Numbered from the stretch's first letter, positions 1,955 to 6,096 are shown. The stretch is 6,904 nucleotides of DNA from a virus (IMGVR_UViG_2648501165_000007:1-6904); one strand, 5' to 3'. The notes: generated by a model not told the origin, from the sequence alone. A program made the numbers and translations.

Positions 1955-2721
1955 NNNNNNNNGTCCGGCAACGAGACAGTGTTAACCTGTCGGAGCAACG
2001 TCTCAGGCCGAACACCTTTCGGCGCGAACAGGCCCTGGTATTCATTGGCGATGCTGTGTCGAATCACCTGCTCAGGTGAAAAACCCTGCTGGCGGAATTT
2101 TTCCAGCTCCCGTATCGCCCCGTTAGCGCCCTGCTCCGTTCGAATCGGTTTACGCAATGCCTGCCTGAACTTAACCCACTCATGCCAGAGTGTTTCCGGC
2201 AACCAGTCAGGCAGCTCGATAGCCTCCGGCTCGAATTTTTTAGACGCTCGTTTTTGGCGAGGGGGATTTAGGGGGAGATCAGTATTTATATCTTCCTCTT
2301 CCTCTTCCTCTGGTAACGCTTTTTGATCCGTTTGTGTAACGCTGCCAGCGTTACCTTTTCGTTTCAGTTCGCGTATTTTTGTAACTCGCTCGTTTGTAAC
2401 CGCCCGTTTTTTAGAGCTTTTTCCGTTATGACGTTCAAAGTTAGGTAGAGAAAGCCCACCGTCATTTTCGACCAGCCATCCAACCTGAATTAACGCATCA
2501 GCAAAACCAGCCATAAAAGTGATGCGGTCTATTGCACTTTTTGTAACGCCGCGAGCGTTACAATCTGCATTACCGTCTATCATTTGTTGATCCGCCCATG
2601 CCCAGAAGCGAATAACCTTCCCTAATGCGGCATCTGGATCAATATTCAGAATCTCAGCAAGCCTGAATATTTCCGGCTTATCCGGCGTAATAACCTCGAG
2701 CTTTATCCAGTTTGAAGCCAT
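1951..2721 (-). CDS. ydaU: replication initiation / replisome organiser protein, YdaU-like (functional analogue of lambda O)
   Basis: ATG at 2719-2721 with AAGGTG RBS. N-terminal region MASNWIKLEVITPDKPEIFRLAEI...GVTKSAIDRITFMAGFADALIQVGWL is typical of phage replisome-organiser N domains. Poly-Glu linker (EEEEEE, 2293-2310) separates N- and C-terminal parts. The 3' end is masked by the N run 1953-1962; the stop was placed at 1951-1953 (Nga on minus), assuming an ATGA overlap with the ydaV-like start. The track ORF reads through to 1906 in an unreliable frame. Confidence 0.65.
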
Positions 2722-2754
2722 TTGTTTTCACCTTGTAACGCTCGCAGCGTTACA
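2312..2754. repeat. dispersed palindromic sites TGTAACGC-N3-5-GCGTTACA (three full copies plus half-sites) within and upstream of the ydaU-like gene
   Basis: Full inverted repeats at 2335-2354 (TGTAACGCT gcc AGCGTTAC), 2542-2562 (TGTAACGC cgcga GCGTTACA) and 2734-2754 (TGTAACGCT cgc AGCGTTACA, perfect 9-3-9). Half-sites GGTAACGCT 2312-2320, TGTAAC 2380-2385, TGTAACCGC 2395-2403. Confidence 0.7.
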
Positions 2755-2798: not shown

Positions 2799-3221
2799 TC
2801 AATGCACTACGACAGAATCGCCGGGCGACCCACCACCGCTGAAATGTGCTTTCCGGTAAACGGCCTGGACTGCATCATCATGCGCATCAATTGCCGTACT
2901 CAACGCTTCCTGCGCCGCCAGTAATGCACGGCGTTCCAGGGTATCGAAGATACGGAGTCGGTGACGCAGCTCGCGCGGAAGAATTGCCAGAACCGCAGGG
3001 ATCAGTTTCTGAATTTTTTCCCTTTGCGCTTTCGTTTCACCTTTCAACCAACGGTGATAGATATTCTGCTGATTGTTCCAGTCCTTGCCTGGTACAAGGG
3101 GCAATTCGCCGCCCCCCTGGCGCAGATATTCTTCAGTAATTGCGTTAGCGACCCACGCCTGCCCTTTTTCGGCTGCCAGGGCCAACAACACTGATTCGAT
3201 ATGCTCATGCCTGATTTTCAT
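2799..3221 (-). CDS. ydaT: YdaT-like protein (reported functional equivalent of CII-type regulators in Rac-like prophages)
   Basis: 140-aa ORF starting MKIRHEHIESVLLALAAEKGQAWVANAITEEYLRQGGGELPLVPGKDW, matching the remembered YdaT sequence and length. Its ATG (3219-3221) overlaps the stop of the Cro-like gene in an ATGA arrangement, indicating translational coupling. Confidence 0.65.
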   Translation of the reverse strand: MKIRHEHIESVLLALAAEKGQAWVANAITEEYLRQGGGELPLVPGKDWNNQQNIYHRWLKGETKAQREKIQKLIPAVLAILPRELRHRLRIFDTLERRALLAAQEALSTAIDAHDDAVQAVYRKAHFSGGGSPGDSVVVH

Positions 3222-3460
3222 GAATCAACCGCTCCTATGCTGTTTTCGCTATGCTTACCGTCTGGGGGGAATACATCGTCAAGTCCACAATGAGCGCCAA
3301 GCCGATTAAGGGTAGAAACAATTTTTCTGCACTCCTCTAGCCCAGGGGTACGAAAATTTGCTTCGTAATTTGCCAGTCGGCTTTGTATCCACCCTAACTG
3401 AACAGCGAGTTGTCTTTGAGACAACCCAAGCTGTTTTCGATATGTTGAAATTTTGTTCAT
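3218..3460 (-). CDS. Cro-like HTH (XRE-family) regulator, 80 aa
   Basis: HTH segment LSQRQLAVQLGWIQSRLANYEA. ATG at 3458-3460 with GGAGG RBS about 7 nt upstream on the minus strand. Divergent from the repressor gene and first gene of the replication-side operon. Confidence 0.7.
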   Translation of the reverse strand: MNKISTYRKQLGLSQRQLAVQLGWIQSRLANYEANFRTPGLEECRKIVSTLNRLGAHCGLDDVFPPDGKHSENSIGAVDS

Positions 3461-3556
3461 TGAAAACCTCCGATGACAATTTTAAACACACCTTGTGTTA
3501 TATGGTCAAGCTGTTTTGTGTTTTATGTAAATCACGATTCGTGATACAAGGATGCA
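3461..3556. promoter_or_regulatory. divergent promoter/operator region between the Cro-like and repressor genes
   Basis: Candidate minus-strand promoter: -35 TTGACC (plus 3504-3509), 17-bp spacer, -10 TTTAAA (plus 3481-3486). Inverted repeat AACACA cct TGTGTT (3485-3499) overlaps its -10. Second perfect palindrome ATCACGA t TCGTGAT at 3531-3545, 12 bp upstream of the repressor ATG. No convincing plus-strand -10/-35 found by eye. Confidence 0.55.
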
Positions 3557-4031: not shown

Positions 4032-4072
4032 TACCATCATCATATGACACCCACCACAAAACACATTTCGTG

Positions 4073-4101
4073 TTGACACAAGAAAACGCATTGTGTTTAA
4101 T
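4073..4101 (+). promoter_or_regulatory. sigma70-type promoter TTGACA-17-TTTAAT with an inverted repeat in the spacer (operator-controlled promoter of the leftward operon)
   Basis: TTGACA at 4073-4078, 17-bp spacer, TTTAAT at 4096-4101. Inverted repeat ACACAA (4076-4081) / TTGTGT (4091-4096) sits in the spacer. A further AACAC attt c GTGTT repeat lies at about 4059-4073. Half-sites resemble the ACACA/TGTGT repeat in the 3461-3556 region. Confidence 0.6.
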
Positions 4102-4281
4102 AAGCATATCCAAACAACGCCCCACCAGAGAACGGCAGGACAATACCTCGAGTTATCCAGCCACTGAACAGGGCTAAGTAGCCAGCCTGAGGCATACGAA
4201 CATGACGGCAGTTGTTGATTGATACAAAGCGCAGTAGATAAAACGTTCCGCCACCCGGCGTTAAGGGGAAATGAGGTCAAC

Positions 4282-4434
4282 ATGGATACTATCGATCTTG
4301 GCAACAACGAATCTCTGGTATGTGGCGTGTTTCCCAATCAGGACGGCACATTCACCGCCATGACGTATACCAAAAGCAAAACGTTTAAAACCGAAGCTGG
4401 CGCACGTCGCTGGCTTGCCAGAAATACTTGCTAA
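4282..4434 (+). CDS. ydaF: small protein, YdaF/YdfA-like, 50 aa
   Basis: ATG at 4282 with GAGG 5 nt upstream. Translation MDTIDLGNNESLVCGVFPNQDGTFTAMTYTKSKTFKTEAGARRWLARNTC matches the remembered Rac YdaF / Qin YdfA small proteins in length and sequence. The track ORF 4219..4434 starts further upstream without an RBS. Confidence 0.55.
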   Translation: MDTIDLGNNESLVCGVFPNQDGTFTAMTYTKSKTFKTEAGARRWLARNTC

Positions 4435-4656
4435 TCCATTATTTGGATTAATTCAATATTCTCGCTGTAGGGGTATAGCAGAAACCACCAAAGCCCGGAG
4501 GTGGTGAAATAAAANNNNNNNNNNATTTAAAACTGAAACAGGCGCACGTCGCTGGCTTGCCAAAAATACCAGCTAATCCATTTATTGGATTAATTCAATA
4601 TTCTCGCTGTAGAGGTATAGCCGAGGCCACCAAAGCCCGGAGGTGGTGAAATAAAA
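4384..4656 (+). repeat. tandem direct duplication, two units offset by 142 bp and roughly 90 percent identical
   Basis: 4384-4514 aligns with 4526-4656 at a constant offset of 142, with scattered substitutions. Unit 1 covers the last 17 codons of the ydaF-like gene plus about 80 bp downstream. Each unit carries a hairpin TAATCCA (5 nt) TGGATTA directly after the stop codon. The junction is masked by N 4515-4524. Confidence 0.8.
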
Positions 4657-4759
4657 CCGGGCATAACACGAAGGCGCATTTCCGGTATCCATAAAGAGTC
4701 GGTCTTGTCTGTCAAATTTAAATGGTGGGAGTGCGCCTCCGGTTGTGAATAACAACACT

Positions 4760-4821: not shown

Positions 4822-5129
4822 AAAGTGAATTTTGTGATGCNNNNNNNNNNAAGCTATTGTCCTTCGTAGCAGAGTTATGGGTGAAATATCCGGCGTTAAT
4901 TGTTAACTGGTTAACGTCACCTGGAGGCACCAGGCACCGCATCAACAAAGTTCACTTCAGTGATGAAAGGTGAGAGAAAATGTTGAATGTAGCTATTGAA
5001 AACCAGAACGGGTGGAATTATAGTGCACCTGCACCTCATAAAACGGGTGCCGGGATTTGCACCCCGATGATCACTAGAGCGCATAACCGCGCCAAAGCGG
5101 TTTTTTTATGCGTAAAGCGCAGCCACATT

Positions 5130-5215
5130 CAGATTATGGTGGGGCGTATGGGGCCGTTTTCGGGCGGGCCGGATTCTCTAGTGACCGGTAGTGCAAACCC
5201 TGTACGTCTCACCAC
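5130..5215 (+). ncRNA. candidate c4-like antisense regulatory RNA embedded in the leader of the Rha gene
   Basis: Element a' CTCTAGTGA (5176-5184) and b' GTGCAAA (5191-5197) are complementary to two upstream/downstream pairs: b1 TTTGCAC 5056-5062 and a1 TCACTAGAG 5071-5079; b2 TTTGCAC 5224-5230 and a2 TCACTAGAG 5256-5264. a' is flanked by CCGG/CCGG, which could close a loop. Boundaries are guessed. Confidence 0.4.
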
Positions 5216-5273
5216 CCATGAGATTTGCACCTCCGGTGGTGAGTTTACCAACTTATCACTAGAGGCTGCCATC

Positions 5274-5828
5274 ATGGCTACTATCCCTACCCTTTCTCAC
5301 CCTGACGTAACCATCGAAAATGGTCGTGCTGTCACTACGTCTGTTGCAGTTGCAGAGTTTTTCCGCAAGCTGCATAAAAACGTCATTCAAAAAATTGAAG
5401 CTCTGGAATGTTCCTCAGAATTCACTGAGCTTAATTTTAAGCCAAGTGAATACACCGACTCAACCGGGCGCAAACTCCCTATGTACCAAATCACCAAAAA
5501 CGGCTTCGTTTTCCTGGTGATGGGCTTCACTGGCAAAAAAGCCGCTGCATTCAAAGAGGCCTACATTGCTGAGTTCGACCGCATGGAAGCAGAACTACGC
5601 CAGAATAATACCACTCCCACAAACAAAATCATTCCGGGCGATGGGCGCACTCTGGTTGTTCGCTTCGACAAATTCGGCAACGTCGAATTCACTGAAACCG
5701 TTCCTGATGACGCTCTCGTCTGTACCCTAGACACTTTCCGCCTTTATCTGGAGAAACAGGGCTGGACTCTTGTAAACCGAAGCGCAATTAAAAACATGAC
5801 CGTCGAGCAGTTGCTGAGTATTAAATAG
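5274..5828 (+). CDS. Rha-family phage regulatory protein (antirepressor-like), 184 aa
   Basis: ATG at 5274 with GAGG 9 nt upstream. Motif RAVTTSVAVAEFFRKLHKNVIQKIEAL ... YQITKNGFVFLVMGFTGKKAAAFKEAYIAEFDRME is the Rha-domain signature. The track ORF 4980..5828 carries a 98-codon N-terminal extension over a structured repeat-rich leader, judged non-coding. Confidence 0.7.
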   Translation: MATIPTLSHPDVTIENGRAVTTSVAVAEFFRKLHKNVIQKIEALECSSEFTELNFKPSEYTDSTGRKLPMYQITKNGFVFLVMGFTGKKAAAFKEAYIAEFDRMEAELRQNNTTPTNKIIPGDGRTLVVRFDKFGNVEFTETVPDDALVCTLDTFRLYLEKQGWTLVNRSAIKNMTVEQLLSIK

Positions 5829-5874: not shown

Positions 5875-6096
5875 ATGATTGCTCATCACTTCGGAACCGA
5901 TGAAATACCACGCCAGTGCGTGACTCCTGGCGATTATGTTCTTCATGAAGGCCGGACATATATTGCCTCGGCAAACAATATTAAAAAGCGAAAACTTTAT
6001 ATTCGTAGCCTAACTACAAAAACATGCATTACTGACTGCATGATTAAAGTCTTCCTCGGTCGTGATGGTTTACCTGTAAAGGCGGAGTCATGGTGA
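5875..6096 (+). CDS. kilR: KilR-like small protein, 73 aa (Rac prophage cell-division inhibitor family)
   Basis: Strong RBS AAGGAG 6 nt before the ATG at 5875. Length 73 aa and position immediately upstream of the ydaE/racC/recE-like genes match the Rac order kilR-ydaE-racC-recE. Sequence identity is from memory only. Confidence 0.6.

Follow-up and report, generated by a model that had tools for sequence, protein, structure and literature searches.

The 6,904-nt stretch of viral DNA IMGVR_UViG_2648501165_000007:1-6904 (henceforth referred to as 'the window', in which all positions are counted from the first letter) covers the part of a Rac-like lambdoid E. coli prophage that governs immunity and replication, and is 99.8% identical to NZ_CP074819. 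A first-pass annotation, made from the sequence alone, had drawn attention to palindromes recurring about every 200 bp across the replication initiator gene. Here we describe these palindromes, the half-sites and the purine tract that accompany them, and the initiator protein with which they occur. The elements in question are as follows.

1963-2721, minus strand: visible part of the replication initiator gene (ATG at 2721), matching PHROG 2509
2317-2721: part of that gene encoding the initiator N-domain, residues 1 to ~135
Initiator residues 96-159: disordered linker, as modelled by AlphaFold2
Initiator C-terminal domain: DnaT-like, on the basis of weak DnaT matches
2734-2754, no strand: site A, palindrome TGTAACGCT-CGC-AGCGTTACA, in a 77-bp non-coding gap
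2542-2562, no strand: site B, palindrome TGTAACGC-CGCGA-GCGTTACA, initiator codons 54-60 (CNARGVT)
2335-2355: site C, palindrome GGTAACGCTG-G-CAGCGTTACA (coding strand), initiator codons 123-129 (GNAGSVT)
2567-2573, minus strand: additional, degenerate left half-site GTAATGC (coding strand), 12 nt to the 5' side of the left arm of site B
2381-2387, plus strand: weak half-site GAGTTAC (coding strand) with one mismatch, codons R112-V-T
2313-2319, plus strand: extra right-arm half-site GCGTTAC (coding strand) with an exact 7-mer core, codons A135-L-P
2285-2311, minus strand: GA-rich polypurine tract AGAGGAAGAGGAAGAGGAAGATATAAA (coding strand; poly-Glu codons), a candidate unwinding or strand-capture element

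The three full inverted repeats of the first-pass annotation were recovered as copies of a 21-bp palindrome, (T/G)GTAACGC-N5-GCGTTAC(A/C), at 2335-2355, 2542-2562 and 2734-2754. The pattern TGTAACGC-N5-GCGTTACA has three matches in the whole window against an expectation of 0.02 (0/200 shuffles gave three), TGTAACGC occurs five times, every copy within 2335-2754, against an expectation of 0.18 (0/200 shuffles gave five), and the window has eight exact GTAACGC 7-mers in its 6.9 kb, all but one of them in 2313-2753. The layout had also been described correctly, with one palindrome in the 77-bp gap between the ydaT-like stop and the initiator ATG, two in the coding sequence and one of these near the poly-Glu codons. 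Site A ends 13 nt upstream of the ATG and adjoins the AAGGTG ribosome-binding site; a scan of the 77-bp gap found no promoter-like site. Site C has one mismatch to the pattern, at the outermost base, and precedes the poly-Glu codons by nine codons. The three half-sites claimed previously fared unequally: the one at 2312-2319 (GGTAACGC) has an exact 7-mer core, whereas that at 2379-2386 (TGTAACTC) carries one mismatch and that at 2394-2401 (TGTAACCG) is weak. The exact half-site at 2313-2319 lies 23 nt after the right arm of site C and adjoins the purine tract at a junction, GCGTTACC(A/T)GAG, which is kept in relatives. The degenerate half-sites at 2567-2573 and 2381-2387 have exact counterparts in relatives, namely GTAACGC at +148 in many of them and GCGTTAC at +334 in several. 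Centre-to-centre distances between neighbouring palindromes are 207 and 192 bp here, close to the figure in the first-pass annotation. The B-to-C distance ranges from 189 to 264 bp among relatives, in step with how many residues separate two tolerant loops of the protein, and a fixed spacing of ~200 bp was rejected as a functional feature.

The initiator is 262 residues long in an unmasked relative (L001) and matches the PHROG 2509 profile 'replication initiation protein' throughout (E=1.5e-89), its residues 1-262 aligning to positions 1-277 of the 277-position profile. A Pfam search with the protein gave no match even at E<=10, Phage_rep_O and DUF1376 included, and the match to PHROG 678, 'replication initiation O-like', is confined to residues 77-236; without a Phage_rep_O hit, the protein is not assigned to the lambda O family. 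Its C-terminal 124 residues align to K-12 YdaU with 81% identity from residue 139, so that the previous label 'ydaU-like' holds for the C-terminal half. It does not hold for the N-domain: K-12 YdaU matches PF07120 (DUF1376) at 2.7e-26, whereas the initiator has no such hit and its N-domain is not of the DUF1376 type. The AlphaFold2 model is confident at residues 11-95, which form helices and a beta hairpin, and has low confidence at residues 54-57 and 96-159. Site B falls in the N-domain-coding loop, site C and the half-site 2313-2319 in the linker-coding part and site A in non-coding DNA; given the low confidence at these residues, site B is predicted to occupy a loop (54-57) with a low predicted local distance difference test score, and site C and the half-site a disordered interdomain linker. 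Fold searches returned only weak, generic winged-helix matches and assign no family. The conserved tail PDSAIPPGFRG (window ~1963-2010, minus strand; L001 residues 244-262) weakly matches primosomal DnaT (NCBIfam E=0.006; PDB 2ru8 and 6aep marginal), and homologues are labelled 'primosomal protein I' in several phage records. The initiator family is large, with >4,000 clusters at 50% identity, and the N-domain family, with 6,891 representatives at E<=1e-3 in a library of 1.84 billion proteins, takes in epsilon15, TL-2011b, Xanthomonas CP2 and many relatives in Ralstonia and Pseudomonas phages. As a separate observation, many E. coli and Salmonella copies of the initiator are 374-380 residues long owing to a ~114-residue insertion just after the poly-Glu/GA tract, inside the origin proposed below; the insertion has no Pfam match, and its GRIDIVV...IELD motifs hint at a small nuclease-like domain.

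To follow the sites in relatives we used a sample of 27 loci (one genome per species), 8 phage records and 80 viral contigs. As the first-pass annotation had asked, homologous genes were compared for conservation of the sites, and the palindromes proved to be kept at the same gene positions despite synonymous freedom. They are found at +148/151/160 (site B) and at +337 to +441 (site C) in homologues from Enterobacterales, Xanthomonas, Ralstonia and Pseudomonas, and also in Planctomycetes (including the isolate Novipirellula rosea), in a metagenome-assembled genome (MAG) of Ignavibacteriae and in a Saccharibacteria MAG; phages TL-2011b, CP2, YL1, PAN70 and VW-6S carry a palindrome at +148/160 and at ~+340 to +440. 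An equivalent of site A is present at -32 to -44 in Enterobacterales relatives and is lacking in most non-enteric ones, in which B and C are kept. The association also holds in the reverse direction: when viral-contig stretches were picked solely for containing GTAACGC-N5-GCGTTAC, 66 of the 80 proved to encode the N-domain and to have the palindrome at the offsets just given. The whole TL-2011b genome has two palindromes, both within the initiator gene; its other exact half-sites are isolated and occur at the chance rate. Xanthomonas phage CP2 (L239) carries two extra GTAACGC/GCGTTAC clusters with trailing GTTAC repeats, at 5976-6030 and 34142-34190, far from the initiator gene, one behind the spanin gene and the other where the leftward operon starts; these could be secondary origins or regulatory sites. 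Among the site-bearing loci the C-terminal domains and the downstream loaders or helicases differ, and the only constant partner of the palindromes is the N-terminal ~135 residues of the initiator.

The previous claim that coding constraint alone was unlikely to produce the palindromes was borne out by a codon test on 40 xNAxxVT peptide sites from 26 diverse loci, in which codon use elsewhere in the same genes served as the baseline. Asn is encoded by AAC in 39/40 sites (53% elsewhere), Val by GTT in 39/40 (36% elsewhere), Thr by ACA in 33/40 (29% elsewhere) and Ala by GCT in 27/40 (21% elsewhere). The residue before Asn varies (C, G, S, R) and yet has an NGT codon in 39/40 sites, and Ser before Val is AGC in 28 of 29 sites, the remaining one being TCT in L106. 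The sole overall exception, an SNAKQVT peptide that lies off position, has unrelated codons and provides an internal control. Across 55 distinct close E. coli relatives, changes within the sites are almost all in the central spacer, and non-coding copies of the palindrome exist, both as site A here and in other Enterobacterales and at two further places in phage CP2. The fixed synonymous codons, the non-coding copies and the confinement of variation to the spacer together argue for selection on the nucleotide sequence. By these comparisons the palindromes are DNA-level elements and no by-product of coding, and the NAxSVT peptides appear to be conserved as a consequence of selection on the DNA.

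The arrangement of the half-sites was surveyed in 92 distinct loci by recording exact half-sites from -120 to +520. A total of 495 were found, of which 278 form inverted pairs 12 nt apart, with 139 full sites having identical 7-nt arms; the remaining 217 have no inverted partner at the 12-nt offset and occur as in-phase direct repeats or singles. Neighbouring half-sites stand at discrete distances of 11-12, 22-24 and 33-35 bp and are most often oriented as ><, ><<, >>< or >><<, with A-n-n-GTAACGC-T-nnn-A-GCGTTAC-A as the consensus. The quantised spacing and the presence of direct and single half-sites fit protein half-sites on duplex DNA, and the elements behave as sites for a dimeric sequence-specific binder, as had been suggested for them initially.

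The last half-site runs directly into CC(A/T)GAG(G)AAGAG..., and the GA tract is strongly strand-asymmetric, with a G+C content (GC) of ~0.43-0.45. It is at least 20 nt long in 84/92 distinct loci, is the longest purine run on either strand in 23/27 loci and, in 50 of 82 loci scored, starts <=2 nt beyond the last half-site. Its translation differs by lineage (PEEEEEE, PEKRREEK, REEKRREE). We examined Arg codons in the 12 codons after the GTTACC junction, which served as the anchor since defining the tract by its purine content would be circular: Arg is AGA in 113/116 codons after the anchor and in 61/738 elsewhere, and, in genes with GC >=0.55, in 39/41 after the anchor vs 6/199 elsewhere. This bias towards AGA points to nucleotide-level selection on the GA tract as well.

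Relatives with divergent N-domains carry variant sites at the corresponding positions. In the planctomycete MAGs L101 and L107 sites B and C both read CTAAC-N9-GTTAG, and in Vibrio phage 1.211.A both read GTCAC-N9-GTGAC. The Paraglaciecola MAG L108 shows this last form at B, its site C consisting of two direct TGTCAC copies whose right arms are degenerate, whilst epsilon15 and phiPSA1, whose N-domain is 32% identical, carry a pair of GTCCGC and then a pair of GCGGAC. Within a genome, the sites have nearly always shifted to one common variant class, as expected of a trans-acting protein of matched specificity and not of independent hairpins. In Pseudomonas copies the outermost pair is broken (GCGTTAG). 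A conserved basic segment of the N-domain is RALTxxRV where the sites are of the GTAAC or CTAAC class and RAxDAxRKR where they are of the GTCAC or GTCCGC class, a correspondence that phylogeny confounds. K-12 YdaU, which has the same C-domain with a DUF1376 N-domain, has ATGTTCAAACA repeats at +389 to +458 and no GTAACGC. As a side observation, K-12 Rac (L110) contains several direct and inverted copies of ATGTTCAAACA at 4263-4578, in the linker-coding region of ydaU, and these copies are good candidates for the oriJ initiator sites.

Overall, we consider it probable that the palindromes, the extra half-sites and the GA tract constitute the replication origin of the prophage, located in and just upstream of the gene of its own initiator. 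The best-supported reading of the comparative data is that the origin would be lambda-type, bipartite or tripartite, and GA-rich instead of AT-rich; like a lambda-type embedded origin, the initiator gene has several dyad repeats of one sequence inside it, and these are kept in relatives. Two of the options offered by the first-pass annotation, that the binder is the initiator itself and that the region is an unusual origin, are accordingly those that the comparisons favour. Comparison between relatives demonstrates nucleotide-level selection on the sites and the tract, exclusive linkage to the N-domain and a half-site class that shifts with N-domain type; from these we infer that the initiator binds the sites, that replication starts from this locus and what the GA tract, site A and site B do. 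The process would run as follows. Dimers of the N-domain, with its winged-helix-like fold and conserved basic segment, would bind the 19-21-bp dyads GTAACGC-N5-GCGTTAC and the in-phase half-sites; site C and the half-site 2313-2319, set against the strand-asymmetric GA tract, would form the core at which the duplex opens, and the DnaC-like YdaV would load DnaB at the opened core. Site B, ~200 bp upstream and within the codons of the DNA-binding domain, and site A, before the ribosome-binding site, may have auxiliary roles, in the assembly of a more extensive nucleoprotein complex and/or in the restraint of initiator expression by the initiator itself.

Several points weigh against an origin here. 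The repeats have no classical A+T-rich unwinding element (local GC 0.35-0.50) and no DnaA box (TTWTNCACA) near them, the single match in the window, at 4744-4752, being at chance level. What is proposed of sites A and B is speculative, their distance to site C is variable, the palindromes could act as hairpins, and the CP2 clusters far from the initiator gene indicate that not every cluster need be an origin. The covariation of N-domain type with half-site class is, as noted, confounded by phylogeny, and the searchable literature yielded no binding or replication data for the initiator family. Nor did a search of that literature for oriJ, ydaU, the epsilon15 origin, polypurine origins and the motif yield a description of these sites, older oriJ papers being outside its coverage.

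The competing explanations accommodate this evidence to different degrees. The initiator might bind the sites for autoregulation or titration only, through a transcription roadblock or through occlusion of translation at site A, with the origin lying elsewhere. Such a role would suit the position of site A next to the ribosome-binding site, the lack of both an A+T-rich element and a DnaA box nearby and the further clusters that phage CP2 has outside the gene, and iteron plasmids such as P1 and F use initiator sites for autorepression. We nevertheless regard it as unlikely, as sites B and C lie deep inside the gene, which is unusual for a repressor site, site A is lacking in most non-enteric relatives, which keep B and C, and the constant pairing of the last half-site with a nucleotide-selected GA tract in the linker-coding region mirrors the layout of lambda ori (PMC5043065). 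We give no more credence to the proposal that the palindromes work as hairpins in single-stranded DNA or mRNA, be it in priming or primosome assembly, in the stability or translation of RNA or as antisense terminators. Each site does fold into a stable hairpin (-7.6 to -9.4 kcal/mol, z -4.1 to -5.5), the class changes from GTAAC/GTTAC to GTCAC/GTGAC or CTAAC/GTTAG preserve the complementarity of the arms, and the C-terminus of the initiator is weakly similar to the primosomal protein DnaT; furthermore, the plus strand of site C (2336-2364, antisense to the initiator gene), followed by CTTTTCGTTT, scores as intrinsic-terminator-like. However, only site C on its antisense strand does so and its T-run is not conserved in relatives, which does not make it an intrinsic terminator, and no Rfam family matches at 2300-2760. 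Hairpins would also be expected to covary freely, whereas the arm sequence itself is conserved in the 139 full sites, 217 of the 495 exact half-sites are unpaired, the Pseudomonas copies break the outermost pair, and the sites of one genome mostly shift to the same class, which independent hairpins need not do.

The first-pass annotation had also suggested that the YdaT/CII-like protein might be the binder, and, more generally, the sites might be operators for this or another phage regulator of the immunity region. Site A indeed lies directly downstream of the ydaT-like gene, and YdaT proteins are DNA-binding oligomers (PMC9986795, PMC11879457), but the published YdaT site is TTGATT-N6-AATCAA (PMC9986795) and the footprints of Rac YdaT are at the ydaS promoter and near the ydaT start, with ydaU unmentioned (PMC11879457). 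Screening was carried out with a profile hidden Markov model, blastp having missed distant homologues such as L097. It detected YdaT in 13 enteric loci and found no homologue in the whole TL-2011b and CP2 genomes or in nine other records (PAN70, YL1, VW-6S, L089, L094, L096, L100, L102 and L105), all of which keep the palindromes. An operator of the YdaT/CII type was rejected on these two grounds, the different sequence and the persistence of the sites without a YdaT-like open reading frame (ORF), and this explanation, already largely refuted, retains a negligible probability. It is only slightly less improbable that a host DNA-binding protein recognises the sites or that they are passive, reflecting coding constraint or a recombination junction of module shuffling. 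Although the NAxSVT peptide is conserved and the C-domain boundary beside the GA tract is a mosaic junction with K-12 YdaU, synonymous positions are fixed, the residue before Asn changes only among NGT codons and non-coding copies exist; the hosts, moreover, belong to unrelated phyla with no known common regulator of such specificity, and the half-site class follows the N-domain of the phage and not the host. YdaT, host factors and coding constraint are hence largely excluded.

The proposed origin can be set beside known systems. The first-pass annotation had treated the palindromic nature of the sites as an oddity with respect to lambda; this did not stand, as O dimers in lambda bind iterons that are inverted repeats too (PMC6022878, PMC5043065). 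In lambda, purines are almost all on one strand in the region beside the iterons (PMC5043065), and O still complements after small in-frame deletions in the AT-rich part of ori (PMC6022878). As with lambda ori in gene O, the origin here would lie inside the initiator gene, partly in its linker-coding segment, with repeated dyads for initiator dimers, a purine-asymmetric region after the sites, a helicase-loader gene downstream and a tolerant linker that bears the origin (PMC6022878, PMC5043065). The initiator, on the other hand, is no homologue of lambda O (it has no Pfam Phage_rep_O match), and the site, GTAACGC-N5-GCGTTAC, is not the lambda iteron. Instead of four adjacent iterons there are two or three clusters 190-260 bp apart, one of them within the codons of the DNA-binding domain and another ahead of the gene, the extra half-sites stand in 11-12-bp phase, and the flanking tract is GA-rich (~45% GC) and not A+T-rich. 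K-12 Rac YdaU/oriJ shares the operon position (cro-like, ydaT, initiator, ydaV), the 81% identical C-domain and the presence of repeats in the linker-coding region; it differs in that its N-domain is DUF1376 and its repeats are ATGTTCAAACA, whereas the N-domain here is unrelated and has no Pfam match. The iteron plasmids (P1 RepA, F RepE, R6K pi) likewise have initiator repeats in several clusters around the rep gene, one of which overlaps expression signals and could autoregulate, as site A may here. Their sites, unlike those described here, are mostly 17-22-bp direct repeats bound by monomers and lie outside coding sequence, and their origins use DnaA boxes and an A+T-rich element. In Bacillus phage SPP1 (G38P/oriL) the origin likewise lies in the initiator's own gene and is bound by the N-terminal domain of that protein; the protein family and the repeat sequence are unrelated and the host is Gram-positive.

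The remaining features of the window surround the initiator gene as follows.

3218-3460, minus strand: cro-like helix-turn-helix gene
2799-3221, minus strand: ydaT/CII-like gene
1214 to ~1952, minus strand: ydaV-like gene for a DnaC/IstB-type helicase loader (Pfam IstB_IS21 and Bac_DnaA; RefSeq label ydaV)

The ydaV-like loader, encoded directly downstream of the initiator gene, is presumably the partner that loads DnaB at the candidate origin; genes of the DUF1627 and DUF977 families come after it. The window contains blocks of ten Ns at 1953-1962, 4515-4524 and 4841-4850, of which the first hides the initiator stop codon and the ydaV start and stands for ~38 bases, as judged by the match length in NZ_CP074819. 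The segments flanking the second block (4370-4514 and 4525-4660) are near-duplicates, which resembles a scaffold or assembly artefact. A racR-like repressor gene lies on the plus strand, and on both sides of it, at 4059-4098 and 3479-3545, there are AACACA/TGTGTT inverted repeats that resemble sets of operators to which the repressor and the Cro-like protein would bind. Rfam matches to isrK (68.6 bits) and C4 antisense RNA (78.1 bits) at 5031-5107 and 5132-5219 (plus strand), just upstream of a 282-residue ORF at 4980-5828, resemble a P1/P7-type c4-ant immunity module beside the lambdoid immunity region.

A broader reading, which is possible but doubtful, is that the window exemplifies a widespread and so far undescribed type of phage origin, ranging from Proteobacteria to Planctomycetes and Saccharibacteria and characterised by site-imprinted peptides, a split origin and an opened GA tract. 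The initiator's binding sites would then have shaped its own amino-acid sequence, the NAxSVT peptides being imprints of DNA sites, and two origin clusters would bracket the region coding for its DNA-binding domain; the GA tract, a mirror repeat in many lineages, would be opened in place of an A+T-rich stretch, and one of its strands might be captured by the DnaT-like C-domain, or the tract might take on a non-B structure under supercoiling. The origin proposed in the main reading follows the lambda paradigm conceptually and is not categorically new (PMC6022878, PMC5043065). New would be the split layout kept across phyla, a GA-rich in place of an AT-rich tract, half-site arrays in 11-12-bp phase and natural specificity variants. 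If that main reading is correct, origins and an initiator recognition code could be predicted at the sequence level for a large phage and prophage family without a Pfam model, and the natural variants GTAAC, CTAAC, GTCAC and GTCCGC would make both protein-DNA recognition and the role of a GA-rich, non-AT tract in unwinding testable. The locus also offers a case of overlapping constraints, in which a DNA signal holds the synonymous positions of a protein-coding sequence fixed from phylum to phylum; this bears on gene annotation, on codon-based tests of selection and on phage engineering, in which recoding the initiator gene would, if this assignment is true, destroy the origin.

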